A stretch of DNA of 46,532 nucleotides, from the sequence record PZ379549.1; one strand, written 5' to 3'. The first letter of the stretch is position 1; each line of letters opens with the position of its first letter. Positions 1 to 46,532 of this stretch are shown in pieces. The notes below the pieces were generated by a model. The model was given only the letters and a program-made list of their open reading frames with translations, was not told the DNA's origin and did no database searches. The stretch comes from a phage. The position numbers and the translations under genes were made by a program.

Positions 1-8
1 GTTGCCAT
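1..8 (-). CDS. 5' end (start codon) of tape measure gene, if window ends are joined
   Basis: Minus-strand ATG at 8..6 preceded by GGAGGA (17..12); in frame with ORF open to nt 46532; in-frame stop upstream at 44..42. Confidence 0.5.
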
Positions 9-99
9 TTTTCCTCCACTAGTAGCTAATAGCACCAAAAGTCAAAAACAATAAATCTCAGTATGTATAATACATTAACACTTCGACTTTGGGGGTAAA

Positions 100-585
100 A
101 TGTTTAAATATTTGTTTGATTATGATGGAATGAAATTGATATGGAAAAACCCAACATCACCTAGATTCACAAAGGGCGACGTTGCGGGAACTAAGCATAA
201 GAGAGGATACATTCAAGTTTGCTTTAATAGGAAGCTATACCTTGCTCATAGGATAATATGGGAGATGCATCATGGCGAGATACCTGAAGGGATGCAGATT
301 GACCATGTAAATCAGGACAAATCAGATAACAGGATTTCAAACCTAAGGCTAGTCACGCAGCAGGAAAACAAAAAGAACAAACCAAAGCAAGTAAGAAACT
401 CTAGCGGAGTTAATGGTGTATCTTGGAATAAATCAAATGGAAAATGGCAGGTAAGGATAGGTGTAGATGGAAAAGATGTTCATCTTGGGTATTTTGATAA
501 CATTTCAGACGCTAAAAAAGCAAGATTCGATGCTGACTTTAGATTTAAATACCATGAAAATCACGGTAACAAAAAGCGCCAGTAG
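100..585 (+). CDS. HNH homing endonuclease with AP2-like DNA-binding domain (free-standing)
   Basis: 161-aa ORF; HNH-type block DHVNQDKSDNRISNLRLVTQQEN followed by AP2-like block GVSWNKSNGKWQVRIGVDGKDVHLGYF; antisense between tail chaperone and tape measure genes; paralog at 28631-29110. Confidence 0.7.
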   Translation: MFKYLFDYDGMKLIWKNPTSPRFTKGDVAGTKHKRGYIQVCFNRKLYLAHRIIWEMHHGEIPEGMQIDHVNQDKSDNRISNLRLVTQQENKKNKPKQVRNSSGVNGVSWNKSNGKWQVRIGVDGKDVHLGYFDNISDAKKARFDADFRFKYHENHGNKKRQ

Positions 586-599
586 GCGCTTTATTTTTT
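576..599 (+). terminator. rho-independent terminator after HNH gene
   Basis: GCGCC-agta-GGCGC stem-loop followed by TTTATTTTTT. Confidence 0.55.
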
Positions 600-713
600 A
601 TCTCTCATCATATCTAAGGGCTTTAGCTTCCAGCACCCTGATATCGTTAAGTACCATTTCGTCTATCATCTGACTTCGTAAACATCAAACAAGAAAATTC
701 AAGGCAGTTGTAA

Positions 714-1007
714 TCAAGACCTGTGGCGCCGCATGTACCAACCCTCCACTGAGTAGACATGGCGCAGTACAAATCCCAACTTTGCATCATATGCCTCATC
801 GAAGTATAACTCTTCAGGCTCCTCACCGTCATAGTCTGATCTTTTCATTCCAATCGCTTCGAGTTCAGCGTCAGTTGGTGGTGATTGGTACTGCAAAAAT
901 ACAGCGCGCCTTAAATTTTTACCCTTTGTCCCGCTAACGCCTTCATGTATGAATCCATTAATGACGGAACTGCGGCAGGGAAAAGGTTCGCGAACTCTTC
1001 TACGTTC
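714..1007 (-). CDS. -1 frame extension of tail assembly chaperone (gpT-like part of a G-T fusion)
   Basis: -1 frame open from 1007 to stop at 714, overlapping the 3' end of the chaperone ORF; acidic C-terminal segment; position between major tail protein and tape measure. Confidence 0.4.
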   Translation of the reverse strand, partial: ERRRVREPFPCRSSVINGFIHEGVSGTKGKNLRRAVFLQYQSPPTDAELEAIGMKRSDYDGEEPEELYFDEAYDAKLGFVLRHVYSVEGWYMRRHRS

Positions 1008-1264
1008 TCATCGTTAAATGGTTCTTCTAAATCCCAATCAGAGCAGATTTCGTTAATCAATTCTTTGGTGCTGAAGTTCTCACGGTTAAGAATCTCCTGC
1101 AACTCAGATGATTTCTTGTGCTTAACTGTTAGCACTACTTCTGCATCATCGCCATTAGCTAACTGGAACTTAACTGGAAGTTTAAAGTCAGGCAGCGCCT
1201 TAAGTGAAAGTTTAAATTTTGCCATCTCGTTATCTCCTTTGTTTGTGTTTGTTGATTGTAGCAT
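911..1264 (-). CDS. tail assembly chaperone (lambda gpG-like)
   Basis: 117-aa acidic ORF directly downstream of major tail protein and upstream of tape measure, with overlapping -1 frame ORF. Confidence 0.55.
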   Translation of the reverse strand: MLQSTNTNKGDNEMAKFKLSLKALPDFKLPVKFQLANGDDAEVVLTVKHKKSSELQEILNRENFSTKELINEICSDWDLEEPFNDENVEEFANLFPAAVPSLMDSYMKALAGQRVKI

Positions 1265-1272
1265 AAAGTGCT

Positions 1273-1300
1273 ATCAATAAAAAACCCTCCGAAGAGGGTT
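1273..1300 (-). terminator. rho-independent terminator after major tail protein gene
   Basis: Minus-strand RNA AACCCUC-UUCG-GAGGGUU followed by UUUUAUUGAU. Confidence 0.7.
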
Positions 1301-1304
1301 AATT

Positions 1305-1964
1305 TTATACCAGTTCAGAAGCTACAGAACTCAGCCTACCACGGATAGATACTGCGATGGATACCGTTTCGATTTCGTTGACACCAATGCTAGGGGTGTC
1401 GTTGAAAGCGATAGTGCCAGACTGAAGGCGCATCTCACTAGCGCGAGGTACGAACAGACGAATAGCAACAACAGTACCAGCTTCGTCATAGTTACGCAGA
1501 ATCGGATATACCGGGTTGGTGTATTCGTGCGCAAACGTGTAGGTGTTGGTTACCGCAGACTTATAAGTTGGAATCTGCTGCTCACGATCATCAGATAAAC
1601 ACTGGAAGTTAACGAACTGCTGTTCGCCGCCATCAGTGGATACGTCCTGAACACAAGGAACTTCAAACCAAGTAAGAATCTTAACAACTTCACCAGTTAA
1701 GCCAGCTGGGAACTTAGTGGTGTTGGAGGTATCAATACCTTCAACAGTTACGGTTGAACCAGATACCTCGGTAACGCGAACTTGCTTATCAGCCAGCAGG
1801 GTCGAAGCTGAGCTGGTAAATAGCAGGTAATCACCGCGTGCAATATCAGCAACGCTGGACAAAGTTAAAACAGGAGTAACAGCATTGGAAATTGCAGTTA
1901 CGTCGATAGCAGCTCCGCGAGAGCCTTCTACGAACACCTGGGTGCCGTTTGATAAGTGAGCCAT
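1305..1964 (-). CDS. major tail (tube) protein
   Basis: 219-aa ORF with AAGGA RBS; immediately upstream of G/GT chaperones and followed by strong terminator. Confidence 0.6.
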   Translation of the reverse strand: MAHLSNGTQVFVEGSRGAAIDVTAISNAVTPVLTLSSVADIARGDYLLFTSSASTLLADKQVRVTEVSGSTVTVEGIDTSNTTKFPAGLTGEVVKILTWFEVPCVQDVSTDGGEQQFVNFQCLSDDREQQIPTYKSAVTNTYTFAHEYTNPVYPILRNYDEAGTVVAIRLFVPRASEMRLQSGTIAFNDTPSIGVNEIETVSIAVSIRGRLSSVASELV

Positions 1965-1979
1965 GTATTTTTCCTTTTG

Positions 1980-2381
1980 TTAGTCTAGACGAACATAAAA
2001 ACGAACCGGGATAAACCACCCAGACTTGGATTTGATAACGGGGTTAACAACTCCAGACTCATAAATGGTCCCGCTGTCAAGCATTGTACCATCAACGATA
2101 GATTCTGCCAATTTATTAGCGATTTGTCTGGGCCTGTCAATTCCAGTACCAGGACTGAAGAATACTGAAATTTGAACCATGCCTACGTAGTATTTGCACT
2201 TCCTGCTTAATCCGTAGGTTACGGTGTCAACCTCTGTATAGTCGTACTTAAGCCAGATTGATCCATCGGCAGGAGGAGTAAACTTACAGTTCTCCCAAGC
2301 GACTGGATATCTGACCGGAAATTCATTTACCAACAAATCGTTGACGAATTTCCTTGCTGCTAATGATAATTCATATTGCAC
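1980..2381 (-). CDS. putative tail terminator / neck protein
   Basis: 133-aa ORF between neck block and major tail protein; function inferred from position only. Confidence 0.35.
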   Translation of the reverse strand: MQYELSLAARKFVNDLLVNEFPVRYPVAWENCKFTPPADGSIWLKYDYTEVDTVTYGLSRKCKYYVGMVQISVFFSPGTGIDRPRQIANKLAESIVDGTMLDSGTIYESGVVNPVIKSKSGWFIPVRFYVRLD

Positions 2382-3927
2382 GACGTAGCCTCCTCTACAG
2401 CTTCCTGGAAATACCTGCCCAACCTTGCTTGCACCACGCCAAGAACGCCAGCCGGAGCCTGATTCGAAGCCCCATACTCAAGGTCAGCAGGCGTAATCAA
2501 GCCTGTTAGTTATGTAGATAACACTTTGTCGCTGGTGAATTAGCCACAGCTCGAGCTTGCCTTGCCAGATACCTTTTTGTATGCTCCACCTGTTTTGATC
2601 GTAATCATTCAGAGACTGAGCTGAGCTGGGGAGTTCGCTGTAATCTGCCAGTTAGCCTTAAACCTACCAGTATCAACAGGCGATAAATCCACGATGGCGT
2701 TAGCAGCCTTAATTACCGTGTCGGCAGACAACAATATCAGAGAAGTTATCATCAGCTCTATCAATCCAATCAGCAATAGCTATTCGTCAAAGGTAGCCAA
2801 CACCACCAATATTTCTAGCCATAGGTAGCCACCCTCCTTAGAATTGGTCTGTAAGCCAACTACTAGTTCCTGTTGGTTTGACTGGCCTCGGGTCGACTAC
2901 AGTGTAAGTTTCATCTTCAACTATAATCCTGATAGCCCTGCAAGATTGCGGACTTCAGACAGTGAAAATTCCACGCTTGTCACCAAACTGGATATATTCG
3001 CCATCAATATCTCTGCGTTTTAATCTCCCTCACCAAGCCCCTTGATTGAAATGCAGTTGCCGCCAGCTACAGGAACCTCAACGCCGTCAACGATTTCGAC
3101 ACCATCCTTTACCAGTATTCATCTCGTGAATGTACCATCTGCCATCACTAAAGATAGTTGATGCCCGTGCGCATTAATTGATTCTACTTGGGAGTAATTC
3201 ATTGGCAACCGCACTCACCGCCAGCAGCGGACGTAATCAAGCCAAATCCGCCGCCTTTCTTGCGCAGGAGATTCCTAGTAAAGTGCGGCCCCACGGCGTA
3301 GCTGATCAATGATGACCTTGAGTTTGCGAGGTGGATATCATAAGCTGATAGAAAATTCACCGCTCAGCGGAGTAACTTGCCACCTTCTATGGCCATATAT
3401 CATCCAGCGACTTCATTCTCGCCCTTAAGCGCGCCATCAAGAAAGGCATCATGTGCAGATGTGTATAGTCCGACAGCGCTTTATAAGCATCATGCACCAA
3501 ACTTACTGGTCGCAGATGTATAGACTTAGCTAACTCAAGCCATACGTCCAGCGATTCGTCATCTGGAATATTCTTAAGAGCAGGAACCAGCGACTTGCAT
3601 AAAGGCTAATGCTTGTATCGTTCATAAAACCTCCATACAATAAACGGACGCCGAAGCGCCCTGTTTGGTTATTTGTACTCGTTGACCAGTCTCAGCCTCG
3701 GCAGATGGTTTTCGGTTCTTTGCGCTTATATTCTTGCTAACAACTTCTTGCGACGATTTGTTTGGTTGCCTTGGTGTCACCCTCAACCTGGTGAGTTGAC
3801 CCTCTGCGATTAAACGCTTGAGCCCAGTCGCAAATTACCTCAACCTCGAATGAGTGTCACCAGGCAAATATTTCTCACCTTTGTAAACGATAATCGTGCA
3901 CGCTCCAGTGTGTTCTAAACGAATCAT
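2382..3927 (-). pseudogene. frame-disrupted block of head-tail connector/neck genes (at least 4 genes)
   Basis: No ORF >=60 aa on either strand over about 1.5 kb; good RBS+ATG starts at 3927 (AAGGAG) and 3625 (GGAGG, ATGA overlap with upstream stop) each run into stops within 15-30 codons while adjacent frames continue protein-like sequence. Confidence 0.45.
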
Positions 3928-3993
3928 TTATTGCTCTCCTTTTATTAATTGATGGTTGATTATAACCCAACAAATCCATTTAGGTACAGACGT

Positions 3994-4016
3994 AAAAAAG
4001 CCCTCCATAAGAGGGC
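3994..4016 (-). terminator. rho-independent terminator after major capsid gene
   Basis: Minus-strand RNA GCCCUC-UUAUG-GAGGGC followed by UUUUUU. Confidence 0.65.
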
Positions 4017-4098
4017 GATTTATTACGCGAAGGTGATGCCTTTGATTACAGCCATACAGTCAGCGGGCGATAAACAATCAATCCCGTCGCTTTTGAGG

Positions 4099-4977
4099 TT
4101 ACCGGGTAGCGTGAAATGCAGGTCCTTCGGCTGAGCCAGGTAGCACGTTCGTCACTTCTGGAATCTCAATACTCAGGTTGAGCGGATCCTTTTCAAACGC
4201 CAGTGCAGCTTTGCCACCAGCACCGTCGTAGTTATCCAGGAATTGCAGATAACGCAGAGTGATGCCGGAGTTATTGGTTGCAAACAACTGCGCGTAGCTG
4301 ATAGAGGTGTTCGGCACCAGTTCTTGCATCAGGCGGCGAGCGGAAGCAGGCAGCAGGATATCAGTCGCGGTGTGAGCACCATTGGTAGCTGTTTCGATAG
4401 CATCGATAAGCGCTGTGATATCAGTCATAGCAGCAGCCGCGGAGTTCCACGTACCAGCAACAACCTGGTTAACGTTCGGACGCATTGAATACGCCAGGAA
4501 TGCCGTGCGGTGCAGAGCCAGACCATACCAGTTTATCGAGCAGGTTGTCATGCGCTTCAAAAGCCAATGCCTGTTTACGAGCTGACAGTGACTGACCAGT
4601 TGCTGCGCCAGCTTTGATTTCGTCGGTGGAAATCAGGAACGCGTTACCAAAACGGAAAACTTTGCCTTGCTTCTCGGTCATGAACGCATCAACCAGCGGC
4701 AAGGTCATCAGAGTAATCAGCGATAATCTGAGCAATTACCAACACCATCAAACTCTGGATATTCGAAATACTTCGCGTGAGCCAGGAATTTCATTAGTTA
4801 CCGGGAAGATATTAACAACTGAGTTTTCTGCGATATTCTTTTTCGTAAGCGCGATGTCAGAGCTAGCGGTCAAGCTGGCTTAACGGTCCAGATACCAGCA
4901 GCATCAGCTTTATCTACACCCATTTGCTCAAGGTGAGCGGTGATTTTTGCTTGTTCTGCATCAAATTTAATGGCCAT
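4099..4977 (-). pseudogene. major capsid protein gene, interrupted by at least 3 frame changes
   Basis: ATG at 4977 (MAIKFDAEQAKITAHLEQMGVDKADAAGIWTVKPA then stop); capsid-like segments continue in other frames (ORFs 4469-4735 and 4099-4560); position between decoration gene and neck block. Confidence 0.55.
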
Positions 4978-6796: not shown

Positions 6797-7525
6797 TTAT
6801 GACTCCCAATCCGGCACAGCCCAACAACGACAGCCGTATTCCTGACCAGGGAAGAGATCGTTACCGCCCAACCTGAAGCTTAGGCCCTCTTTCTTGAAAT
6901 GGGTCATTCGCTCCCTTTCATCAAGCATGCCGTGCCAAATGTAATGTGTAACACCAGCATCCTCTAGCCTCCTGCGCATGAACGTAGAGTTAATACTGGA
7001 CGTGATGCCTGAGGCTATATTAGCAGTTCTCTTGCGGTAAATCTTGTACCTTTCGTTAATCTTAAGGTAGTCACCACTCTGTATGATTGATGCAGACTGA
7101 ATAAAGTCGTCCTTGATATTGTTGAGTAACTTTTCAACGGACTTATTTGATGTGTAAAGCCACTGGTTTAAATCCGGCTGATACCAATCTTCATCTCCAT
7201 TTATACCGTTAAGTCTCAAGTCCATAACTGACTGGACCGAGCCGCCACCAGTCTTGATTGCCAGCACAAGAAACTGCGATGAATTATACCTGTATATTGA
7301 CGCTCCAATTGCCGGAAGTGTAGCTACAACAGAAGCTATAAGCGCTGCTATGATTGCGTCGAGATAATTATCTTCCTGCTCTAGCTCCTCGGCAGTGTCA
7401 ATCTTAAGCCGCGTAGCTGATTCTTTCATTGCAGATATTAGCTCAGTTACCGCAACGCTAAGGTTGCGGTTTACCTGATTCTCAATTGTCTGCGGGTACT
7501 TCCAGCGGGTCTTCACTGGTTTCAT
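6797..7525 (-). CDS. head morphogenesis protein (SPP1 gp7 / Mu F-like)
   Basis: C-terminal signature WHGMLDERERMTHFKKEG ... PGQEYGCRCW; follows portal. Confidence 0.65.
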   Translation of the reverse strand: MKPVKTRWKYPQTIENQVNRNLSVAVTELISAMKESATRLKIDTAEELEQEDNYLDAIIAALIASVVATLPAIGASIYRYNSSQFLVLAIKTGGGSVQSVMDLRLNGINGDEDWYQPDLNQWLYTSNKSVEKLLNNIKDDFIQSASIIQSGDYLKINERYKIYRKRTANIASGITSSINSTFMRRRLEDAGVTHYIWHGMLDERERMTHFKKEGLSFRLGGNDLFPGQEYGCRCWAVPDWES

Positions 7526-8759
7526 TGATTGTTACCTCTGTCTCAATTGAACCTTCACCAATCTTAACCTCAGGGGCTAATGCGCGCAAGGTATCTCGTG
7601 CTTCGTCTGCATCCATCACGCCGTTAGTGATAAGAGCAGTAATTGAATCAACGTTATTCTTCAGTACTTCAGCGCGGTCTTTCTTCGATTCCTGAGCTAG
7701 AGGGTTAAACTCAACTGACCATTCTTGCTCGGTTGTGACGAACGGGATTAAGAACCCAAGAACTGGAAGTAGCTCTTCGTTACGCTTGCGGTCAATCAAC
7801 TTATGGAATGTCTCTAGCGCTGTGTTTTGGCTAGATGATAACCCGCCAACGTTACGACCTTTGAGAATGATTTCATGGATACCGCTCAGAGCAACAATTC
7901 TGTCGAACTTCTTATCGAGGAATCCATCAATCCCACCAATATCCGAGTTAAGAACGCTGTACTCTTCAGCTTCAGCGTCGATACCAATCGCGCGACCAAC
8001 GCCAGAGTTATCATCAACCTGGGCAAGCCTCAACCTGGCCGCACCAAAACCTTCCGCGTCGTCACACAGTTCAGCAAGGCCTTTAGCCTTCCACACCGCC
8101 TGCTGCTTGCGGCGCAATAACTGAGTTGCCAGTTTCTCACACGTCTGATAATCCTTGATTGATTCAAGCAGGTCAGGAACCAGAACGCTAGCACCCCACC
8201 CGTCATTACCGCGACGCAATGAACTAGGAATCTTCTCGCCATCCATAATGTGAACTCGCGAGTAGTGCACATCATAAAACATGGCGCCACCTTCTGGCGT
8301 GATGCGGTACGTTAATGGCTTACCGAATCGCACATTGCGAGGGTTTTCCTCCTTAGTCTGAACTCTTACCTGGCTACGCTCATAAACGCGAAGTGATTCA
8401 AGTTCCGCGCCTTCACGTACCGGGCTAGTTAGCGCACGATTGTCCTTAGCGATAGCCACAATTGCAGAGCCGCCAAATAACCTCGCCCATGACCATGCGT
8501 CAGAGATTGACTCGTTAACCTTCAGGTAATCCCACCTGGACCAGAATTCACCTTCGTCATCAATACCATCGATATGGAAACCTGCGGCGATTGCTGTCTC
8601 CGGTATGGTGTCGACGATGCGGCGTACAATTGAGTTTGATGCGTACAGTGAATCAGCGAAAGGAGGTGTAAGATACGTGTTGCCAAAGTGCCCGTAAATC
8701 TCGCTACCATCACTGGAGCCACCAAGAAATTGCGTGGCGTATGAATCTGCTTTTACCAT
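7482..8759 (-). CDS. portal protein
   Basis: 425-434 aa ORF between terminase side and head morphogenesis gene; ATG 8759 with GGAG RBS preferred, since track start 8786 lies inside terminator stem. Confidence 0.8.
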   Translation of the reverse strand: MVKADSYATQFLGGSSDGSEIYGHFGNTYLTPPFADSLYASNSIVRRIVDTIPETAIAAGFHIDGIDDEGEFWSRWDYLKVNESISDAWSWARLFGGSAIVAIAKDNRALTSPVREGAELESLRVYERSQVRVQTKEENPRNVRFGKPLTYRITPEGGAMFYDVHYSRVHIMDGEKIPSSLRRGNDGWGASVLVPDLLESIKDYQTCEKLATQLLRRKQQAVWKAKGLAELCDDAEGFGAARLRLAQVDDNSGVGRAIGIDAEAEEYSVLNSDIGGIDGFLDKKFDRIVALSGIHEIILKGRNVGGLSSSQNTALETFHKLIDRKRNEELLPVLGFLIPFVTTEQEWSVEFNPLAQESKKDRAEVLKNNVDSITALITNGVMDADEARDTLRALAPEVKIGEGSIETEVTINETSEDPLEVPADN

Positions 8760-8772
8760 TTTATTTGCTCCA

Positions 8773-8795
8773 ATAAAAAGCCCCATTTAGGGGCT
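8773..8795 (-). terminator. rho-independent terminator between moron and portal
   Basis: Minus-strand RNA GCCCC-UAAAU-GGGGC followed by UUUUUAUUG. Confidence 0.65.
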
Positions 8796-9171: not shown

Positions 9172-9246
9172 TTTTTACTCCTCTCGTTTGCGTGAAGTAA
9201 CTATAAGCCATCCTTGGCGGCACGTCTTTAGCAAAACGTGCTATTT
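9172..9246 (-). promoter_or_regulatory. box-hairpin-(-10)-leader unit upstream of moron
   Basis: Box at 9226-9246 overlapping TerL stop (TAG), hairpin GCCAAGGATGGC, TATAGT, CACGCAAACGAGAGGAG, ATG 9171. Confidence 0.4.
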
Positions 9247-10824
9247 GATGCCAGCGAGGCGCATCATCCTCGATTTAGGGTCTTCTGCAATGTTCAGTAC
9301 CAGGTTTACGGCCATTGTCAAACAGTCTATCTGGTCATCGTGAACATGTGAATCATCTGCCGTGAATGCCGCAATCTCCGTTAGCAAGCCATTAAGCCAA
9401 GTAGCAGACTCCGGAAGGATTACGTTACCAGCTTTAATCTGCGGCAATGCACTCATTACGCGAGTCAGCTTATCGTTATCCGGAACGTACGGCTCGATAG
9501 GCGTTCGCATAACCCTTCCGGCTGATTGAATCAGGCCAATACCAGAGGCTTTCTTCTCGATGATGATTTTACGAAGGATGCCATCTATCTGATTGGATGC
9601 CCTAGCCATCTTCTCGAAATCCAATAACTCAGCCTCGAGCTCAGGAGCTTCAAATTTACCGCGCCGCTGGTCAAGCAGATAAATCTTCCCATCCTTATAA
9701 CCCCATAGCTGCATGACGCTAAAGTCGCTGTAACTTTTGGTTGTCATCGCAGTATCAAGGACCATAAACCTGTAATCGTACTTAGCTGGCGGTCGCAGAG
9801 TGTCGCTAATGCGTTGAAGCCAGTCTACGTTAATCAGGTTGCCGCCAAGTGCTACTGGTTCTTGCTGATACTGGCTAAGGAATGTATAGCTATCAGAATC
9901 CCACATTGCAACTAGGTCGTGAACAGATTCCTTGCCAGGGAAATAGCTATAGTACCTAACACCATCACGCTCAATATATTCGCTTGATAGAACGTCATCA
10001 ATGAATTGCCGCTTAATCCAGTCAGGAAGCGTGTCGACGTAATCCTCAGTTACGAGCGCCGGTATCTTAATCAAGTCGAAGCTAATACCCATACCGCCAT
10101 TCATCATGAACCACGTACTATCATTCACATGAAGGCGCTGTTGGATAGAGATAATCGGCGTCGCCTTTCCTTTTACGGAGCTCGCCCTACGAGAGCGTAT
10201 TGTATTCTTTAGCATCACGTGATTGTTAGCGCGAAAAACAGCAGAAAGCATGTCGGCTGGTTTGTCAAAATCATCTAACAGAACCGCTCCGCTATATGAA
10301 TCCGTTATATATCCACCCCTTGCGCCGGTTATTTGGCCTCCAGCAGCCTTAGATATTGACTCAAACCGAACCTTACCAGACTCATCCAGAACTTGAAGCT
10401 CATCATCCTTGCACGTACCGAACTTGCATGGGAATAACTCCTGGAACTCAACAGACTTAATCAGGTCCCGAACTCGCTTGGAGTTACGCTTAACAAGTGA
10501 GTCGGCAAACGAGATGTTCAGGTTCCTGACCTTCTTTAGCTTAACCATCGAGTAGGCCGGGAAGTGAATTGAAGCTATCTCTGTTTTTCCACTTCCTGGA
10601 GCGATGTTAATGATTGTGTCCTTGCGCTCACCAGCGATAATCTCGTCAATGATTCGACACAGGTATTTGTGATGCCAGTTAGGGATGTATCGCTCGCCCT
10701 GGGTAAGTTGGAACCACACCCGCAAGAATCCCTCGAAACTATGAGTGGATATAGCCTTAACTGCCATCTTTTCTGCTGGCGTCATTTCTTCCCATACTAA
10801 TGTTTCACTCATCCTACTCTCCAA
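9241..10824 (-). CDS. terminase large subunit
   Basis: 527-aa ORF with ATPase and nuclease-like halves; immediately upstream of portal module. Confidence 0.85.
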   Translation of the reverse strand: MESRMSETLVWEEMTPAEKMAVKAISTHSFEGFLRVWFQLTQGERYIPNWHHKYLCRIIDEIIAGERKDTIINIAPGSGKTEIASIHFPAYSMVKLKKVRNLNISFADSLVKRNSKRVRDLIKSVEFQELFPCKFGTCKDDELQVLDESGKVRFESISKAAGGQITGARGGYITDSYSGAVLLDDFDKPADMLSAVFRANNHVMLKNTIRSRRASSVKGKATPIISIQQRLHVNDSTWFMMNGGMGISFDLIKIPALVTEDYVDTLPDWIKRQFIDDVLSSEYIERDGVRYYSYFPGKESVHDLVAMWDSDSYTFLSQYQQEPVALGGNLINVDWLQRISDTLRPPAKYDYRFMVLDTAMTTKSYSDFSVMQLWGYKDGKIYLLDQRRGKFEAPELEAELLDFEKMARASNQIDGILRKIIIEKKASGIGLIQSAGRVMRTPIEPYVPDNDKLTRVMSALPQIKAGNVILPESATWLNGLLTEIAAFTADDSHVHDDQIDCLTMAVNLVLNIAEDPKSRMMRLAGIK

Positions 10825-10828
10825 ACTA

Positions 10829-11353
10829 TTACAGCTTACTAATCACAGACTCCAGCGCTTCCTTCATCGTATCGACGTCGTTAGCTGAAGAGTTGTTGCT
10901 GATGGTAATCTCCTGCGGCTTGTCGATTCCAAGCTCTTTGGAAATCATGCCAGGGTTAATGATGCCAGATGCTGCAAGCTGGTATTTCTGCTCGCGAATC
11001 ACGGAATCAATGAACGCAATCACCTCATCATAACCAGCCGACTTCCTCCATTTCTCGATGGCGCTATGGGTGACACCGCAGTAAAGGCAGAATCCGGTTA
11101 GCGTGAAGACTCGTGGTTTGTGCACCAGGCTCTCTTTTACCACACCCTGGAAGCTGGCTGTCTCGATTGCCTTGATTGCCTGGTTCTCAGCCCATGAGAA
11201 GTATTTCACGGCGAATTCAAATAGCTGTTCGGGTGTCATGCTTCGGTTTTTGGCTAGCGTTGTAATGTCTGAGTACTTTTTATTGTACATGGCTTTAAAG
11301 TTGCCAGAGCGGACCTTTTCTTGCGCCTGACTGGTGAAGTTTTCGTCTTTCAT
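10829..11353 (-). CDS. putative terminase small subunit
   Basis: 174-aa ORF immediately upstream of TerL, AAGGAGG RBS; assignment by position. Confidence 0.5.
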   Translation of the reverse strand: MKDENFTSQAQEKVRSGNFKAMYNKKYSDITTLAKNRSMTPEQLFEFAVKYFSWAENQAIKAIETASFQGVVKESLVHKPRVFTLTGFCLYCGVTHSAIEKWRKSAGYDEVIAFIDSVIREQKYQLAASGIINPGMISKELGIDKPQEITISNNSSANDVDTMKEALESVISKL

Positions 11354-11477: not shown

Positions 11478-11666
11478 TTACTTTCGCTCACGAACGTAAG
11501 CTACTAGGAATTTGTGGTAATCCGGGTCGGCACCAGACATTACCTTAACTTTCGCTACTGCTTCCTCTGAGGACTTAGCAGTAACCGACGCGATAAATTC
11601 TTGAGTGCAACTTTTGCAACTACGACCCATTAATCGGATTGAAAGCTTAACATCCCAGAGCTGCAT
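11478..11666 (-). CDS. hypothetical protein
   Basis: 62-aa ORF; may be 3' part of a frame-shifted gene with 11647-11859. Confidence 0.3.
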   Translation of the reverse strand: MQLWDVKLSIRLMGRSCKSCTQEFIASVTAKSSEEAVAKVKVMSGADPDYHKFLVAYVRERK

Positions 11667-11859
11667 TTTTTATCTTCCCGCTCTGATTGCTATAGTTTTG
11701 AGTTTCTCTTTCAAGCTCGAGATAGCCTTTAATATCCGCGCTAACTGAAACCCCGCCAATCACACCCTTTAAGCATTTATGTTCACGGTCAAGTGTTGCG
11801 TTGAATTTTTGGGAAGTGCCGCTTTCAATATCTTTTACGATGATTGTTACTTTTTTCAT
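11647..11859 (-). CDS. hypothetical protein
   Basis: 70-aa ORF downstream of tRNA. Confidence 0.3.
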   Translation of the reverse strand: MKKVTIIVKDIESGTSQKFNATLDREHKCLKGVIGGVSVSADIKGYLELERETQNYSNQSGKIKNAALGC

Positions 11860-11890
11860 TTAATCCCCCAGGATTATTGGTTTCTTAATT

Positions 11891-11966
11891 TGGTGTTCCG
11901 CACTGGACTCGAACCAGTAACTAAGACTTAGGAGGTCTTTGCGTTATCCTGTTACGCCAGCAGAAC
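11891..11966 (-). tRNA. tRNA-Arg (anticodon CCU, reads AGG)
   Basis: Hand-folded 76-nt cloverleaf: acceptor GTTCTGC/GCGGAAC, D-arm GCGT-AACAGGATA-ACGC, anticodon arm AAGAC-CTCCTAA-GTCTT (U33, CCT, A37), variable AGTT, T-arm ACTGG-TTCGAGT-CCAGT, discriminator A, encoded CCA. Confidence 0.8.
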
Positions 11967-12154
11967 AAATCCTTGAGTAGCGATTGCGCTATTGAAGGAT
12001 TGCTGGTTACGCTTCCAGCGTCGAGTTTCTCGACCGATTTCGCCATATACGCTGCTTAGTGAGCTATGGACTTTGTGTTGCGCTCCGTGCGCCGTTGCCA
12101 CTTGGTGGCCTCGTCTGTCTACAGTTGTTAATGTACCAGTCAGGGTTAGATGTG

Positions 12155-12355
12155 TCAACTTACTCTTTCGAATTTCCCATAATTCTGGTCATACGGGTAG
12201 TCAATGCTCACCAATTCGCCATTATCGCTGTAGCAGAATACGTGGCCAGTCTTCGATACCTTTTCGACCTGGTAATCGCATCCATCCATGAAGTCATCAG
12301 ATACCGCCTTTGTGCACTTGATAGCATCGCCTTTCTTAATAATTTTATTCATCAA
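12155..12355 (-). CDS. hypothetical protein
   Basis: 66-aa ORF. Confidence 0.4.
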   Translation of the reverse strand: MMNKIIKKGDAIKCTKAVSDDFMDGCDYQVEKVSKTGHVFCYSDNGELVSIDYPYDQNYGKFERVS

Positions 12356-12543
12356 AACTCCTCAGTTATAAGCATCTTGCCACAATCTTTGCACTCGTAG
12401 AATGAACAGCTTTCACCAACAAATAGACTTTGTTTTGTTGACTCATGGTACTTGTCGTTTAGCGCTTTAATGTCAAAATCGTTAATATTTGATGTGAACA
12501 CGTAAACGTAGCGATGCTTGTGATTGATTTCTTTATTATTCAT
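12352..12543 (-). CDS. hypothetical protein (CxxC motif)
   Basis: ORF 12352-12567 trimmed to internal ATG (MNNKEINH...). Confidence 0.35.
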   Translation of the reverse strand: MNNKEINHKHRYVYVFTSNINDFDIKALNDKYHESTKQSLFVGESCSFYECKDCGKMLITEEF

Positions 12544-12775
12544 AAAGGCTATTCCCATTCTGATCATGGCCCACGCGCCCTCGTCGATAGCCCGCTATCC
12601 ACACAAACTTGTCTCGTGCGATTAGTCGTCGAATACCGGCCCCCACATCTTGAGTGATCAGCGCCGCCACTACCTTATCATCTTTCTTCTTTGCGCCAAG
12701 TTTGCCGTACTCTTCATTCAGCTTATCAGCCTGGCGCTTGACTGCGTTAAAGTATGCGTCGTTTAATCCGAACAT
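12536..12775 (-). CDS. hypothetical protein
   Basis: 79-aa ORF, start ATG overlaps upstream stop (TAATG). Confidence 0.35.
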   Translation of the reverse strand: MFGLNDAYFNAVKRQADKLNEEYGKLGAKKKDDKVVAALITQDVGAGIRRLIARDKFVWIAGYRRGRVGHDQNGNSLYE

Positions 12776-16156: not shown

Positions 16157-16277
16157 ATTCGTTACTCCTGATTGGTTGCTCTTCGTTAAGATGAAACCAT
16201 GGTATCATGAATATACGCGTTATCAAGTGTTATGTTGTGTTTATATCTGCATTGGTTACGCTTTTTGACCTCTCAGC

Positions 16278-16291
16278 CCAGCTATAGCTGG
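16278..16291. promoter_or_regulatory. perfect 14-bp palindrome CCAGCTATAGCTGG
   Basis: Read directly; core AGCTATAGCT recurs at 35217-35226. Confidence 0.4.
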
Positions 16292-16407
16292 TGTAATTAC
16301 CCTGTGTAAGATTTTACGCGGATTCGCCGGGGGTATGCATATGTATCTATATAGATAAAATTAGTAGTTTTCATAGAAAAACTATCGACCCATCCATACG
16401 ACCAATC

Positions 16408-16495
16408 TACACCATATACATACATATATATAATAATAATAATAATATAGTAAAAGGTTGATATATATAGATATTATTATGTAACCATTGCGTAA
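16408..16495. repeat. AT-rich control module copy A, includes (TAA)5 microsatellite at 16431-16447
   Basis: About 85 percent identical to 35357-35439 by eye. Confidence 0.6.
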
Positions 16496-16642
16496 TCTAG
16501 CGTGGTAGGCGTGTATGATTCTTCGGAAGCGCACCTCATATACACACCATAACTTCGATAACGTGTATATCCAAATTGGCTCAGCAAGAATCAAAATCAA
16601 CTTGTATGGTAGTCCATCCACCATTCATTCACCCCACATCGA

Positions 16643-16743
16643 TCATTGCAAATTCTGCAACAATCAAAAACATCATTGCATTCGATGCAATATTGCTATA
16701 TGTGCAATAATGATGATGAATCATTGCAATAGCTGCAACAATC
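16643..16743. promoter_or_regulatory. operator/iteron-like array of TTGCAA-family sites
   Basis: 23-bp direct repeats TCATTGCAA-N4-TGCAACAATC at 16643-16665 and 16721-16743 flanking inverted repeat ATTGCAT-tcg-ATGCAAT at 16675-16691. Confidence 0.4.
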
Positions 16744-16755
16744 TATAAATCCAAC

Positions 16756-16830
16756 GAATAGCACTTTTTGCTAATGCACAATCATTAGTAAGTTGCTACT
16801 ATGTATTCATCGAAACGGTGCTGGACTCTG
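16756..16830 (+). promoter_or_regulatory. box-(-10)-leader unit at head of rightward small-ORF cluster
   Basis: Variant box 16756-16776, then TATGTATT, CATCGAAACGG. Confidence 0.35.
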
Positions 16831-17005
16831 AGTCACTTCCGAAAGGAACCAAAAAGAGTGAACGACACCGCGCAATGTGAGGAAGCGTTACCTTACCCAC
16901 CAAAGCGCCTTGCGGGTCCTTTTGATAGGATGCCGGGCCGGGTTTAAAATCCCGAGTTGTAGTGAGTACGTTGAAGAGATTTCGATAACAAGAAAACATA
17001 GAGAG

Positions 17006-17176
17006 ATGACAGTGATGACAGAAAAAACAGTTGGTTACAGTTACAGTAATGGTCATTGGGTTGTTGAGTTAAAAGGGTTTCACAAGTACCCAAAATTAAG
17101 TTTCTTCATGACAGAAGATGATGCAAAGTCTTGGGTTCAGGTTCTTAAAGAAAGGTGGTTTAAAAATGAAACTTAA
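17006..17176 (+). CDS. hypothetical protein
   Basis: ORF 16877-17176 trimmed to internal ATG. Confidence 0.3.
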   Translation: MTVMTEKTVGYSYSNGHWVVELKGFHKYPKLSFFMTEDDAKSWVQVLKERWFKNET

Positions 17177-20023: not shown

Positions 20024-20033
20024 ACTGGATACA

Positions 20034-20246
20034 ATGCAGGAAGCGGTTATGATTTTCAACGAACTAAGCAAGACTTATTTATCATCCGCTAGTGCTGCTG
20101 GTCATGCTGGTGACAATGCCGAGATGAACAAGCTGGTTGATATCCTGATTAAGCAGGGCAAGAATGGTAAAGGTGTTGTTGGTGTTCGCTCGTTGTATGA
20201 GGCTGCACGCAAGGTTAAACCTTTTGAAGCTCAGGCTGGAATGTAA
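20034..20246 (+). CDS. hypothetical protein
   Basis: 70-aa ORF. Confidence 0.4.
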   Translation: MQEAVMIFNELSKTYLSSASAAGHAGDNAEMNKLVDILIKQGKNGKGVVGVRSLYEAARKVKPFEAQAGM

Positions 20247-28618: not shown

Positions 28619-28630
28619 GGAGAGAAGAAA

Positions 28631-35515: not shown

Positions 35516-35591
35516 CATAGCACTAATTGCTAAAACTGATCCGCAAAACCGGGTATAGTTAGCAACACAAACAACGAGAGAGAATTTTAAA
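35516..35591 (+). promoter_or_regulatory. box-(-10)-leader unit upstream of methyltransferase
   Basis: Box 35516-35535, TATAGT, CACAAACAACGAGAGAG. Confidence 0.4.
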
Positions 35592-36282
35592 ATGGTTATC
35601 TGGTCTTTATTTGATGGTTCTGGTCTGGCGGTAAAGGATTGGGCTGAAGCTGGCCACACTTGCTACTGTTTCAACTTTGATGAGTCTGACCACGGCAGCT
35701 ACAGTGACTTAAATGCAAAGGTTGAGCATGAGAACATCACATACGTTAACGCATGGATAGATGCTGACTTCGATTTTGATGTGAAACCTGATTTTATAAT
35801 GGCGTTCCCTCCATGCACTGACTTAGCCGTGAGCGGATCAAGACACTTTGAACGCAAGTGTACTAGCTAACCCTAACTTCCAAATTGAAGCTGCGGAGAC
35901 GTGCAAGATTGCTTTTAATCTTGCTGAAAAATACGGAGTACCATACATGATCGAGAACCCAATCAGCGTACTGTCATCACTTTGGCGAAAACCTGATAAC
36001 ACCTTCCACCCATATGAATACGGAGGCTATTTGCCGGAAGATGATTTACACCCGTTTTTTAGCGACCTAATAAAGCCAAAAGACGCATATCCCAAGAAGA
36101 CATGCATTTGGTATGGCAATGGGTTTAAATGGCCAGAGGCAATTCCAGTGGACGTTAACGGTGGATTCTCTGACCAATACAAGAAGCTAGGCGGGAAGAG
36201 CAATAAGACAAAGGTAATTCGCAGCCTAACTCCTCGCGGTTTTGCAAAAGCCGTCTTCATTGCAAATAGCACCAATTGCTAA
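35592..36282 (+). CDS. C5-cytosine DNA methyltransferase-like, one frame change near 35848-35870
   Basis: Motif I LFDGSGLA, PC motif FPPCTDLAVSG, ENV-like MIENP; two overlapping ORFs in different frames. Confidence 0.5.
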
Positions 36283-42372: not shown

Positions 42373-42382
42373 TTTATACTCC

Positions 42383-43138: not shown

Positions 43139-43149
43139 ATTCTCTCCAA

Positions 43150-43171
43150 TAAAAAAGGCCCTCTATGGGCC
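43150..43171 (-). terminator. rho-independent terminator between M and L
   Basis: Minus-strand RNA GGCCC-AUAGA-GGGCC followed by UUUUUUAUUGG. Confidence 0.65.
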
Positions 43172-43176
43172 TTAGT

Positions 43177-43527
43177 TTAACTCATTGAAGTAAAAACTTC
43201 AGTAAATTGCATGCTAACAGTCTGGACTTCTTTTGTGCTAGGAGTGACGCTGATACTATCCTGCTGAATAACAAACAGCTTTAATTCACCCTGTGGCGTA
43301 GTCCATGCGAAAGGTTTTACAATGTGATCAAAGCAGAAGTTCATTACTGCCTCCCACTCACGACCAACGTAGCTAACCGTATACGTCCTTTTGTTTGTCC
43401 TGTATCCTCCAGTACCCCTTTGTTCAAAGCCGTTGCCAAAGGATACAATTCTAACGTTGTTCTTGTTACTAAATAATGATCCACCGTTGAGAACGTTCAA
43501 GCACCAGTTAAATGTTTGCAATGCCAT
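43177..43527 (-). CDS. minor tail protein (lambda gpM-like)
   Basis: 116-aa ORF immediately downstream of tape measure. Confidence 0.55.
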   Translation of the reverse strand: MALQTFNWCLNVLNGGSLFSNKNNVRIVSFGNGFEQRGTGGYRTNKRTYTVSYVGREWEAVMNFCFDHIVKPFAWTTPQGELKLFVIQQDSISVTPSTKEVQTVSMQFTEVFTSMS

Positions 43528-43558
43528 TTAAAATCCTTAGGGGCCGAAGCCCCGTTAA

Positions 43559-46532
43559 TTAGTTGTAACCCCTCAGATAAGCAAAGGCTCTTCCGCCCTG
43601 CTGGAATGACTTGCTGATTTCCTCAGCAACGATAACCTTGACTCCAGATTCTATCGCCTTAGCATCATTTCCGCCACCAATTCCAGAGTTTACGTTAACC
43701 GTCACGCCGCCAACACTGACATTCGTGCCACCAACAACTCCACCATTAGCATAGCCAGAGGGCCCACCAACAGCGCCGCCATTTGCATAACCTCGCATTA
43801 GCTTGTACAGGTTCTTAACGCCAATCCTGCTTGTAGCTTCTTTTGTGAATACAAACTCACCGCGGTGCACAGTTCCAGCAGGTTGATACTTCCCGCCGTC
43901 TCCAGTGTAGCCGCCACCAGCAAAGCCAATTGCTGACTTTATTGACTCAAAGGCACTACCTGCTCCAGTGTCACCACCAAAGCTCTTAATTGTAGATTCA
44001 ATAGCCTTTACCAAAAGTAGCTGAGTTGCAATTTTCGCAATCATTTTCAGTATGTTTGCCGTGAACTCCCTGAAATTAGTCTCTCCAGTGGTTACAAGGT
44101 TTGTAATCTGGTCGGTAATTCCATCAAAAGCTGCGACAGTCAAATCCTTAGCAATTTGGTTGAAGTCAGTGTACTTCTCAGTTAAGTCAGCAAGCGTTGA
44201 AGTTACACCAGCTTGCCAGTCTGACCTTAGGTTATCTTCCTGCCTGTAGTATTCTTTTCTTGCTTCCAGCAGATTTTGGAAATCAACATCATTTACAGAG
44301 CCACCCTTGTTTACCTGATTGGACTCTAGCGCCTGAAGTTCTCCTGCCCTTTGCCGCTCCCTTTCGGATAGACCCGCAGCAAGTGAAACATTCTTCGCCT
44401 CATTGGTAATCTGTATTGTCTTCTTAAGGTTGTCATCAAGTAACTTGTTTGACCTCTCCTGAAGCACAATCTGGTCACCAAGTTCAGCCTTCTGTTTAGC
44501 CTGTTCAAGAATGATATTCTTCTGCGCAAGTAGCTTAGCCTGTGATTTTGTAAGCGTACCATCCGCTTGTCTTTGTTCAAGTATTGCAAACTTCGCTTCT
44601 TCCTGGAATAACTGCTTTCTTTCATTGCTTATTACATCATTTATCGTTCTGTGCTCTTGTAAGACCTTTAACTGAGCCTGAAGTGCAAGAACGCCAGATT
44701 CATAAGATAAAGTTAAATCACTTTCTTCTTTTACAGCCTTTTTCCTCTCACTCCTTGCTTTCTTTATCGCATCATACTCATCGGCAAGAGCCTTCTTCCT
44801 TGCTGCAAACTCCTTATCGGTTGATGCATTATTGCCGCTAAGGTTGGTGTTATTGTTGTTCTCGACATAACCAAGCTCACCCTTCCTGATTCTCGCATCT
44901 CGCTCAGCTATGCTTTTTGCTAACTCCTCATTTTGCTTCTTAGCTGCATCAACAATCTTTTGCTGCTCAGCGATTGCTTCATTGCCTAAATCGCCAAGTC
45001 CAGGTATTGACTGAAGTGTCTTGGTTGCTGCTATTGCAAACTCGCCCAATAGGATATCACCGGAGTTTATTAACGACCTTATCTGCTCAATAGTCCCAGC
45101 AACAACGTCAGTTATTAAGTTAAGCGCCCCAAGCGTCCTTTTGCTTATATCATCCCAAATCTCACTTACAAACTTCCTGAAGCTATTCCATGCGCTCTCA
45201 AGAGGGTTAAGGCTTAGTGCTACGTCTGCTAGCCTGTTTTCCATAACGTTAGCGAATAGCTCAGTAGCTGCGGTTACAGCCTCTGTTTCTCCAGCCGTCT
45301 TCCTGATATTCTCAATGTATTTCAATTGCCCAGACTGAAGGAAGTTGAACTGCTTATCGAGTGCAATCAGACCTTGAATTGGGTCCTTTGTAATCTGATC
45401 AAAGTATCCAAGAATAGTTTTCGAGTCTGTTGATGTTACAGTTGCCCATTGTGCTGTCGCCTTGGTTATCTTATCTATCTGCGTAAGAGTCAGATTACCG
45501 TTTGCTACCAGGCTGTTAGCTATCTCCTGGATAAGTCCGCGCGTGGCTAGTGTTGAACTCTCAATTCCATCAACAACCTGATTTATCTGCGCTGTCGACG
45601 TGATAGTTGAGTTGCCAACCAATGTTATCGTTGATGCTAGTCCGCGAGTGTTCTTGTCAGCCTGATAAGCAGCAACACCAAGAGCGCCGAGGGCCAAGCC
45701 CAAAGTCCCAACAACTGCCGTTAATGGGTTAATGGCTGCCAGTGCGAACCTTGCGGTGTTAGCAATACCACCAAAGCTATCCTTAATCTGCCCACCCTGC
45801 TGAATTGCAATTAGCCAGATTGGGATACCACCAGCTAGAGAGGTTCCGATATCTGTAATCTGCGCTGGAAGCTGTCGAATTGCTTGCTTGTATTGACCGG
45901 CACTAAGCCCAGACTTAACAAAAGCGGAGCTTTGCTTCTGCAATTGTACCGCAGATGCCTCGGCAGCCTTTCCAATCCTGTCGATAATCGGTGCAGCCTG
46001 GTCACCAACTCCTAGCTGAGCAGCCTTAAGCTGAAGAAGTTCAGTCCTTGTCAGGCTTGCTGCATTCGCCTCGTTCTCAAGAGATTGAATGAACTTTTGC
46101 GCTGCTGTTGTTGCTTTCTCTTTATCTATTGATGCCTGTAGTGCAGCCCTGCCTTCTTCGCTAAGAGCGGCTTTAGACCTGTTTAGCTTATTGATTTGAG
46201 TTTCAATAACAGAGCCAAGCCTGAAGAATTCATCATCAGGAACTATCCCGGATTCAAATGCTTTGTCCAAATCTGTTGCTGCTTTCTGCAACTTCAGGAA
46301 TTTAGCAGCGGTTGGGTCTATGGCTTGCTGAAGTGATGCGAAAGATTTGCGCTGCTCCTCAAGCTGCCTTGCAGTGTCCCTTGCTTGAGTCTTGGCTACA
46401 AGTTCGGCGTTGACGAAGCTATTAATGCCTGTTGCAGCTTGCTCGTTTGCTTGCCTGAATTTCTGTAAGGATTGCGTACCCTTATCGACCTGAGCTACGT
46501 CGACGGCTAGCGTGATACCAGCAATTTCGTTA
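43559..46532 (-). CDS. tail tape measure protein, 5' end runs off window
   Basis: Long alpha-helical Ala/Gln/Lys-rich ORF; track start 46291 is TTG; hand translation shows frame open from 46291 to 46532. Confidence 0.8.
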   Translation of the reverse strand, partial: NEIAGITLAVDVAQVDKGTQSLQKFRQANEQAATGINSFVNAELVAKTQARDTARQLEEQRKSFASLQQAIDPTAAKFLKLQKAATDLDKAFESGIVPDDEFFRLGSVIETQINKLNRSKAALSEEGRAALQASIDKEKATTAAQKFIQSLENEANAASLTRTELLQLKAAQLGVGDQAAPIIDRIGKAAEASAVQLQKQSSAFVKSGLSAGQYKQAIRQLPAQITDIGTSLAGGIPIWLIAIQQGGQIKDSFGGIANTARFALAAINPLTAVVGTLGLALGALGVAAYQADKNTRGLASTITLVGNSTITSTAQINQVVDGIESSTLATRGLIQEIANSLVANGNLTLTQIDKITKATAQWATVTSTDSKTILGYFDQITKDPIQGLIALDKQFNFLQSGQLKYIENIRKTAGETEAVTAATELFANVMENRLADVALSLNPLESAWNSFRKFVSEIWDDISKRTLGALNLITDVVAGTIEQIRSLINSGDILLGEFAIAATKTLQSIPGLGDLGNEAIAEQQKIVDAAKKQNEELAKSIAERDARIRKGELGYVENNNNTNLSGNNASTDKEFAARKKALADEYDAIKKARSERKKAVKEESDLTLSYESGVLALQAQLKVLQEHRTINDVISNERKQLFQEEAKFAILEQRQADGTLTKSQAKLLAQKNIILEQAKQKAELGDQIVLQERSNKLLDDNLKKTIQITNEAKNVSLAAGLSERERQRAGELQALESNQVNKGGSVNDVDFQNLLEARKEYYRQEDNLRSDWQAGVTSTLADLTEKYTDFNQIAKDLTVAAFDGITDQITNLVTTGETNFREFTANILKMIAKIATQLLLVKAIESTIKSFGGDTGAGSAFESIKSAIGFAGGGYTGDGGKYQPAGTVHRGEFVFTKEATSRIGVKNLYKLMRGYANGGAVGGPSGYANGGVVGGTNVSVGGVTVNVNSGIGGGNDAKAIESGVKVIVAEEISKSFQQGGRAFAYLRGYN

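Follow-up and report, generated by a model that had tools for sequence, protein, structure and literature searches.

A T1-like Escherichia coli siphophage genome whose record ends join within the tape measure gene

T1-like members of the Drexlerviridae are established as packaging their DNA by a headful mechanism that starts at pac and yields terminally redundant, circularly permuted molecules (PMC7718038, PMC8421802, PMC13164509, PMC5238451). Permutation without a cos site is seen in restriction and PFGE data for SU57 (PMC7718038), PhageTerm returned a headful/pac result for MSK (PMC8421802) and found KanT1 to have no fixed termini (PMC13164509), Rtp is described as a pac/headful phage (PMC8421802), and the packaging mechanism of T1 has been summarised (PMC5238451). 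T1 itself (NC_005833), of the subfamily Tunavirinae, is the prototype phage for headful packaging from a pac site with limited permutation, and its record is oriented from the region of terminal redundancy, whereas the record examined here opens inside the tape measure gene. HNH genes are also known to be sporadically distributed in the family (PMC13164509).

Here, we analysed the whole 46,532-bp stretch of record PZ379549.1 (the window). All of its best matches are to Drexlerviridae, subfamily Braunvirinae, and its length (about 43-51 kb expected), T1/Rtp gene order and orthologous large terminase (TerL), portal, major tail, tape measure and J-like proteins place it there. The nearest genomes in our collection are those of Escherichia phages ES (OR466728) and AN_ECEAS (PP944860), which are colinear with the window over ~90% of its length. 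Identity ranges from roughly 77 to 99% between individual segments, with the longer, better conserved blocks at about 91-96%, and the tape measure protein is 92% identical. Rtp (NC_007603), the type of Rtpvirus, shows whole-genome synteny at about 70-80% nucleotide identity; protein identities to Rtp mostly lie between 64 and 97% for conserved structural and replication proteins, the few lower values falling partly where frames in the window are broken. T1 has the same order of modules, with the tape measure gene placed after a G/T chaperone and a terminator between T and tape measure, but its DNA similarity to the window is only patchy. Gene content also separates the window from its closest relatives: a Mu-F-like head morphogenesis gene is found in the window, Rtp and T1 and is absent from ES and AN_ECEAS, while the HNH gene of the latter two lies between the small (TerS) and large terminase genes, where the window has none. 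The phage would stand at or near genus level with ES and AN_ECEAS and represent a different species, which would add a species-level relative to both.

The sequence-only reading had proposed that the two ends of the window join within the tape measure gene, and this was confirmed. Frame 1 of the reverse complement is free of stops from position 46532 down to a stop at 43559-43561 (ORF 43562-46532), so that 43559..46532 on the minus strand holds all of the gene from the third base of codon 3 through its stop. The remaining 8 nt of the coding sequence (ATG GCA AC) lie at 1..8, also on the minus strand. Within the first 20 nt of the window, GTTGCCATTTTTCCTCCACT, CAT at 6-8 is the ATG and TCCTCC at 12-17 is a Shine-Dalgarno-like GGAGGA, and further on, TCA at 42-44 gives an in-frame TGA, which ends the open frame upstream of the start codon. 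Across the join the frame thus reads, after this stop, LLVLLATSGGK-MATNEIAGITLAVDV..., and the joined coding sequence amounts to 2971 + 8 = 2979 nt, or 993 codons plus stop, exactly as had been read. The earlier description of the initiation region as textbook is slightly generous: both GGAGGA and ATG are present, but the spacer between them is only 3 nt (AAA), shorter than optimal. At the homologous start ES has GGAGACAACATG, with GGAGAC in place of GGAGGA.

The joined product has the domains (Pfam TMP_2, 164 bits; Tape_meas_lam_C, 59.6 bits), the position between G/T chaperones and an M-like gene, and the full-length homology of a lambda-H-type tape measure protein, and it matches PHROG 24 (tape measure). 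Its residues 1-993 align with the 990-aa tape measure proteins of ES (92.3% identity) and of Escherichia phage CY1 (93.8%). The first 40 residues, beginning MATNEIAGITLAVDV, are identical in ES and CY1 and near-identical in Rtp, whose protein likewise starts MATNE... and has diverged in its middle. Directly downstream lies the minor tail protein gene (43177..43527, minus strand), 68% identical to rtp38 and similar to lambda M.

At the DNA level, the 168 nt spanning 46532|1 align without gaps to contiguous DNA of ES (165/168, E = 3e-81; 3 differences) and of CY1 (158/168), and in blastn against relatives a single uninterrupted 3.2-kb HSP passes through the junction; the ends therefore abut with no base missing or duplicated relative to contiguous homologous DNA. 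Colinear HSPs with ES cover 42.1 of the 46.5 kb, and Rtp is colinear round the entire circle, with 42 of its proteins found in order. Position 1 of ES corresponds to about 11635 of the window and position 1 of Rtp to 16697. Taken together, the gapless junction alignments and the colinearity with ES and Rtp confirm the join far beyond chance: the ends meet seamlessly, the tape measure gene is full-length, and the circle is colinear with complete relatives throughout. The record carries no repeat between head and tail, and therefore holds exactly one genome unit. In our view, the window is very probably one unit length of the dsDNA genome of a T1-like E. coli siphophage, its circle cut at an arbitrary point that falls 8 nt into the tape measure gene. 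No exact match to the 41-mer at the junction was found in IMG/VR, and no independent contig with the exact junction, the HNH protein or the TerL of this phage was found.

The genome had also been called complete, which holds for its extent (unit length, colinear round the circle) and does not hold for its sequence. Compared with relatives, the window carries ~120 insertions of 1-2 nt of its own, of which ~75 fall within 2489..4875, a zone so dense in single-base insertions that the frames of the head-tail connector and major head proteins are destroyed. The major head protein, the rtp29 and rtp31 homologues, the T part of the tail assembly chaperone, both helicases, VRR-NUC and endolysin are split over two or three frames only in the window. 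As at least 8 genes are frame-broken, several of them expected to be essential, the sequence as written could not encode a viable phage and is not that of a finished genome.

One could take these breaks at face value, as those of a degenerate or defective genome or of a chimeric consensus of mixed strains, and the number of split genes that are intact in ES, AN_ECEAS, Rtp and T1 might be read in that way (ES and AN_ECEAS have only their own split rtp53-type helicase gene as an exception). We consider this very unlikely, since the disruptions are nearly all insertions of 1-2 nt: against ES the window shows 121 insertions and 30 deletions, while the control comparison of ES with Rtp gives 102 and 119. 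The inserted bases are used uniformly (A29, C26, G28, T27) and have no link to homopolymers, homology persists in the shifted frames, as does divergence of the synonymous type in the T region, and deletion of the window-only columns restores a major head ORF of 315 codons. Such a pattern of insertions with surviving homology is the signature of technical noise rather than of decay. In extent the sequence is full-length, but its quality is that of a draft with numerous spurious insertions of 1-2 nt. As these break essential genes, conclusions about individual genes should wait until it has been polished.

The tail assembly chaperone illustrates this. Its G-like part (911..1264, minus strand; 117 aa; Phage_TAC_4, 109.9 bits; 73% identical to rtp35) is intact and lies next to the major tail tube protein gene (1305..1964, minus strand; Phage_tail_3; 87% identical to rtp33), whereas the T-like (DUF1799) part (592..905, minus strand) is split over three frames by five insertions of +1, +2, +1, +1 and +1 nt. 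In ES, CY1, Rtp and T1 the T part is continuous in the -1 frame, with the continuation KKLKRAVY..., and the end of G reads A_AAA_AAC in ES and CY1 and A_AAA_ATT in the window. As written, the window therefore has neither the slippery heptamer nor the continuous -1 T frame of a programmed -1 G/G-T frameshift. Because insertion noise is genome-wide, this broken signature is most likely a sequence error as well.

The circular closure had further been taken to fit headful packaging. It does, given the terminase homologies and the literature on relatives, but closure by itself is not indicative of headful packaging, since cos phages and phages with direct terminal repeats also assemble as circles. 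Among the packaging proteins, TerL (9241..10824, minus strand; Terminase_6C; PHROG 38) is 79% identical to that of Rtp and 56% to that of T1, TerS (10829..11353, minus strand; GP3_package, P22 gp3-like; PHROG 606) 68% and 57%, and the portal protein (7482..8786, minus strand; Phage_portal_3, 224 bits) 77% identical to that of Rtp, with all three orthologous to their T1 counterparts at 55-57%. Headful phages of this family whose packaging has been studied by experiment thus have terminases orthologous to that of the window, and by this orthology to Rtp and T1, together with the published work on relatives, pac/headful packaging is probable for this phage too. By synteny with the start of the Rtp record and with the T1 record, the pac neighbourhood would lie in the divergent early-gene intergenic zone near 16.2-17.1 kb (16160..17100), away from the ends of the window. 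The T1 record begins, in the corresponding divergent region, with a repeat_region annotated at 1..2800 (a 2.8-kb terminal repeat); comparison of the window with the left end of T1 showed no DNA similarity.

On such a model, the phage would form concatemers in the cell, on which the terminase, with its P22-gp3-like TerS and a TerL orthologous to those of Rtp and T1, would start at a pac site. Each head would take up slightly more than one genome, giving virion DNAs with terminal redundancy and a limited circular permutation, and reads from these DNAs would assemble into a circle that software or submitters may open anywhere. Permutation of the T1 type is limited, starting at the pac site, rather than random. 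The finding as such neither challenges nor extends the current understanding of phage packaging.

That the circle is real while packaging proceeds by cos or by fixed direct terminal repeats collapsed by assemblers, with no circular permutation, is a reading with which both the closure and the absent terminal repeat are equally compatible, as these cannot separate modes of packaging, and pac is placed here only to a neighbourhood, by synteny. We nevertheless regard it as highly improbable in view of the orthology of both terminase subunits to those of Rtp and T1 and the P22-gp3-like TerS, the experimental exclusion of cos and demonstration of permutation in SU57 (PMC7718038), the PhageTerm results of headful/pac for MSK (PMC8421802) and of no fixed termini for KanT1 (PMC13164509), and the terminal redundancy annotated for T1.

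The earlier suggestion that the circle had been opened arbitrarily gains support from the records of relatives, which start at many differing points. Twelve MK907xxx records of 44,091-44,219 bp contain the same segment at different offsets and on different strands, the record of AN_ECEAS is cut inside its own portal gene, and those of DTL and phiA2-1 are flagged circular. Like the window, the AN_ECEAS and MK907xxx records present a unit-length genome cut at a biologically meaningless point; AN_ECEAS has kept a 75-bp terminal overlap from the assembler, whereas the window is trimmed to exactly one unit. An opening inside the tape measure gene is therefore an ordinary consequence of assembling such phage genomes.

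Close to this opening lies an HNH gene (100..585, plus strand; 161 aa), and its placement between the G/T chaperone and the start of the tape measure gene, as originally read, is borne out by gene order and Pfam domains. It is antisense to the surrounding tail genes and encodes a protein with HNH_3 (84 bits; cutoff 24.8) that belongs to PHROG 99 (E = 1e-67). AP2 scores 20.8 bits, below its cutoff of 33.3, while homologues are annotated as 'AP2 domain protein'. In blastn the alignment to ES and CY1 breaks at window position 18 and resumes at 592, delimiting a cassette of 573 bp (19..591), and a terminator-like hairpin with a T-run (573..600, plus strand) marks the 3' end of the gene. ES and CY1 lack the cassette and have a 28-bp spacer between the same conserved flanks, lying within the 37-nt intergenic region from T to tape measure and holding a terminator hairpin; AN_ECEAS, like ES, has no HNH gene at this position, and those of Rtp are found elsewhere (rtp20, rtp40). 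In domain content, size and the small cassette with its own terminator, the gene resembles the free-standing HNH_3/AP2-type homing endonucleases of PHROG 99, which likewise occur sporadically between conserved genes, but it shares at most 57% amino acid identity with any homologue in the phage collection. These best homologues sit at other genome positions, and none among them was seen at the chaperone/tape-measure spacer. The gene is thus predicted to form a free-standing homing-type endonuclease cassette that replaces the terminator in the spacer between T chaperone and tape measure, and its presence/absence polymorphism suggests that the cassette is mobile. Drexlerviridae are already known to carry a mosaic of homing endonucleases, and this site would be one more in it.

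The opening of the record is 18 bp away from the left boundary of this cassette and 99 bp away from the start codon of the HNH gene, and this nearness could be chance or not. Some phage HNH homing enzymes of the I-HmuI type nick near their own insertion site, even in element-bearing alleles. The adjacent enzyme might similarly nick or cut its own locus site-specifically in replicating or packaged DNA and so leave a real discontinuity at the record ends, halting reads and assembly; were this the case, a T1-like phage would have, where its tape measure gene starts, a specific site marked by a free-standing HNH enzyme. We find this extremely unlikely, given that the records of relatives are opened at many unrelated points, that the opening coincides with no recognisable sequence boundary, and that, with so many features that could count as nearby, a single coincidence carries little weight. 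That the join is itself coincidental, with sequence missing between the two ends of an incomplete contig, has next to no probability in the face of gapless junction alignments in two independent relatives, a tape measure protein aligned end to end and synteny round the full circle.

With the window understood as a circle cut arbitrarily, the genome can safely be rotated, for instance to start near 16.7 kb of the window as in the Rtp/T1 convention. Left unrotated, the record would have its tape measure gene annotated as truncated, or as beginning at a false internal TTG start at 46291.

The two ends of the window, nucleotides 46532 and 1, join within the tape measure gene on the minus strand, as the sequence-only reading had proposed. 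This observation is confirmed, and the interpretation attached to it, that of a complete, circularly permuted headful genome, is supported. The numbers given for the gene proved correct without exception: window bases 1-20 are GTTGCCATTTTTCCTCCACT, and the minus strand carries an ATG at 8..6, GGAGGA at 17..12 and an in-frame stop codon (TGA) at 44..42, while the reverse-complement frame runs unbroken from 46532 to the stop codon at 43559-43561. Read across the join from the upstream stop, the translation is LLVLLATSGGK-MATNEIAGITLAVDV..., and the joined gene spans 2979 nt, or 993 codons. The initiation region, with its SD motif and ATG, had been called textbook, a description that is slightly generous because only 3 nt separate the two. 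An ORF lister, which cannot see across the window ends, wrongly placed the start at a TTG (46291), shortening the product to 910 aa. The product matches Pfam TMP_2 and Tape_meas_lam_C as well as PHROG 24 (tape measure), and its gene is flanked on one side by the Phage_TAC_4 chaperone (911..1264) with its DUF1799 T-like region, and on the opposite side by an M-like minor tail gene (43177..43527).

The join is equally evident in comparison with related phages. The joined protein aligns along its whole length, residues 1-993, with the tape measure proteins of Escherichia phage ES (92.3%) and CY1 (93.8%), each of 990 aa; the first 40 residues do not differ between the three, and the Rtp protein likewise begins MATNE. 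At the DNA level, one 3.2-kb HSP crosses the artificial junction, reaching window position 18, and the 168 nt across 46532|1 align without gaps to ES (165/168, E = 3e-81) and CY1 (158/168), with neither a missing nor a duplicated base at the join. The exact 41-nt junction string had 0 matches in IMG/VR.

Circular closure itself fits a cos or DTR genome as well as a headful one; a cos or DTR genome was considered as a rival and is very improbable. The headful packaging claimed for this phage draws on homology and on the literature on its relatives. TerS is P22-gp3-like (GP3_package) and is 68% identical to that of Rtp and 57% to that of T1, the corresponding values for TerL being 79% and 56%. 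The T1 record has a 2.8-kb repeat_region annotated at its left end, and T1 permutation, according to what Ramsay & Ritchie reportedly found in 1983, is limited rather than random because the packaging series is short. The terminase of T1 recognises pac and fills heads by the headful mechanism, so that the packaged DNA is terminally redundant and permuted (PMC5238451). Among other relatives, the Braunvirinae phage SU57 has restriction and PFGE patterns that follow a circular map, and no cos site (PMC7718038), MSK was assigned headful/pac packaging by PhageTerm, with Rtp and T1 cited as the same (PMC8421802), and KanT1 has no fixed termini (PMC13164509). From these homologies and reports we infer headful/pac packaging for the window phage. 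By synteny, its candidate pac neighbourhood should be the divergent early region at ~16.2-17.1 kb, ~16.7 kb from the window ends.

Arbitrary opening of the record is routine in the Drexlerviridae. In twelve MK907xxx records (44,091-44,219 bp) one and the same segment of 20.8 kb appears at a dozen offsets, on one strand or the other. The record of AN_ECEAS is cut within the portal gene (residues 1-363 at 46993-48081, residues 339-432 at 1-276) and retains a 75-bp exact terminal overlap, and those of DTL and phiA2-1 were deposited as circular. Nothing about the junction goes beyond what headful T1-like phages and assemblers are known to do, and the finding of joined ends is ordinary; its practical upshot is that the record needs rotating and its sequence polishing. 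Within the final ~310 bp deposited for ES (48005-48315), the segment 48005-48160 matches window 11558-11713 in one orientation, and ES 48005-47098 matches window 11637-12544 in the opposite one, so that the end of that record looks like an assembly artefact.

Polishing is called for by a large number of broken frames. In ES, CY1, Rtp and T1 the T part of the G/T tail assembly chaperone is an unbroken -1 frame (KKLKRAVY... beyond the end of G), whereas five insertions (+1, +2, +1, +1, +1) interrupt it in the window (592-925); the slippery heptamer at the end of G is A_AAA_AAC in ES and CY1 and A_AAA_ATT in the window. Tblastn searches with Rtp proteins show that, in the window alone, two or three frames are needed to cover the T region, the major head protein, two head-tail connector proteins, the rtp67-like DNA helicase (18761-20344), the endolysin (21090-21567), the VRR-NUC protein (25587-26007) and the rtp53-like ATP-dependent helicase (26012-28006); ES, AN_ECEAS and T1 are unbroken at these points. 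In the helicase, endolysin and VRR-NUC genes the breaks are isolated +1/+2 insertions that ES, AN_ECEAS, Rtp and T1 do not have; several of the insertion groups there happen to total 3. No such break affects the tape measure, HNH, TerL, TerS or portal ORF. Measured against ES, short insertions in the window number 121 and short deletions 30, compared with 102 and 119 in the control comparison of ES with Rtp; the ~120 insertions of 1-2 nt fall at 600-900, 2489-4875, 18.7-20.3 kb, 21.2 kb and 25.5-28.5 kb. Most affected is 2489-4875, where the major head and connector genes are disrupted by ~75 window-specific insertions of 1-2 nt, a density of about one in 30 nt; the only ORF of at least 60 aa in 2381-4099 is a short one on the plus strand (3949-4134), and the segment 2302-5023 is 86-88 nt longer than in phiA2-1, DTL and G8.

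Two special explanations of the broken chaperone, an HNH-associated rearrangement and expression of the DUF1799 core in an alternative, split form, were rejected, as similar single-base insertions occur genome-wide. A degenerate genome was considered as well; against it stands the pattern of the insertions, which points to technical error. They exceed deletions, the window-only bases of a five-way alignment are evenly used (A/C/G/T = 29/26/28/27) with no tie to homopolymers, and deleting them restores a major head ORF of 315 codons (phiA2-1, 315; DTL, 314). The simplest reading of this pattern is technical noise in an unpolished or poorly covered stretch, and not biology.

In extent, the genome is complete, as had been claimed. 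ES HSPs cover 42.1 of the 46.5 kb in a single colinear circular order; ES position 1 corresponds to window ~11635, and ES ~12599 to the junction of the window ends. Rtp is also colinear around the circle, its position 1 aligning to window 16697, and 42 Rtp proteins were located in order. The stretches left uncovered by HSPs are mosaic replacements and not end gaps. No terminal direct repeat or head/tail similarity was found within the window, which is therefore exactly one unit. An incomplete contig is dismissed by the gapless alignments to ES and CY1, in which no base is lost at the join. Segments with no DNA match in ES, again mosaic replacements, lie at 28619-29376 (primase/regulator region), 30556-30987 (tail-fibre body), 35535-36264 (upstream of the lipoprotein gene) and 16782-17165 (divergent early intergenic zone).

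The HNH gene (100..585, plus strand) had been placed between the chaperone and the tape measure start, and the 573-bp cassette carrying it (19..591) does sit in the spacer between these genes. Neither ES nor CY1 has anything corresponding to the cassette; there its site is filled by 28 bp (L001 4219-4246), part of the spacer from the T stop codon to the tape measure start. In both phages this spacer holds a hairpin and T-run (rho-independent terminator), and in T1, too, a terminator is annotated at this position. The cassette has a terminator of its own (573-600), whose hairpin (573-592) could partially substitute for the lost one on the minus strand. Its ORF of 161 aa, which lies on the strand opposite to the tail operon, matches HNH_3 (84 bits) and, below threshold, AP2. 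A promoter scan of the plus strand found no sigma-70-type promoter upstream; a TATAAT lies at 66-71 but lacks a good -35.

The best HNH homologues in the phage collection, mostly from other T1-like phages, are at most 57% identical and adjoin head genes rather than the T/tape-measure site, which appears to be new to that collection. A DNA search with the cassette gave no match, IMG/VR held no close protein relative and one distant locus only (42% identity), and exact-sequence searches of the public assemblies for the HNH protein and for TerL gave no match. ES, AN_ECEAS and Rtp carry an HNH gene between TerS and TerL, which in the window are adjacent, 4 nt apart (10824-10829); cassette sites therefore differ among family members. 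Sporadic occurrence of this kind is usual for free-standing homing endonucleases, and the cassette is predicted to be mobile and to encode an active nuclease. The window opens just 18 bp from its left boundary. This closeness may be coincidence, or reflect an assembly or physical discontinuity nearby; a causal connection, for instance through a nick made by the HNH enzyme, is very improbable.

By megablast and blastn, the window belongs to the Drexlerviridae, subfamily Braunvirinae, with Escherichia phages ES and AN_ECEAS as nearest records. Roughly 90% of its length aligns to these at 77-99% identity per segment, and the genome as such is absent from the phage collection; it is a new species-level relative of the two. 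It shares with Rtp and T1 a Mu-F-like head morphogenesis gene (6797-7525; 77% identical to rtp24), whereas ES and AN_ECEAS have no tblastn match to it, the protease gene coming straight after the portal gene in these two. On the minus strand at 11891-11966, just upstream of the terminase genes, there is a single tRNA-Arg (anticodon CCT); a tRNA-Arg is annotated in related MK907xxx records too.
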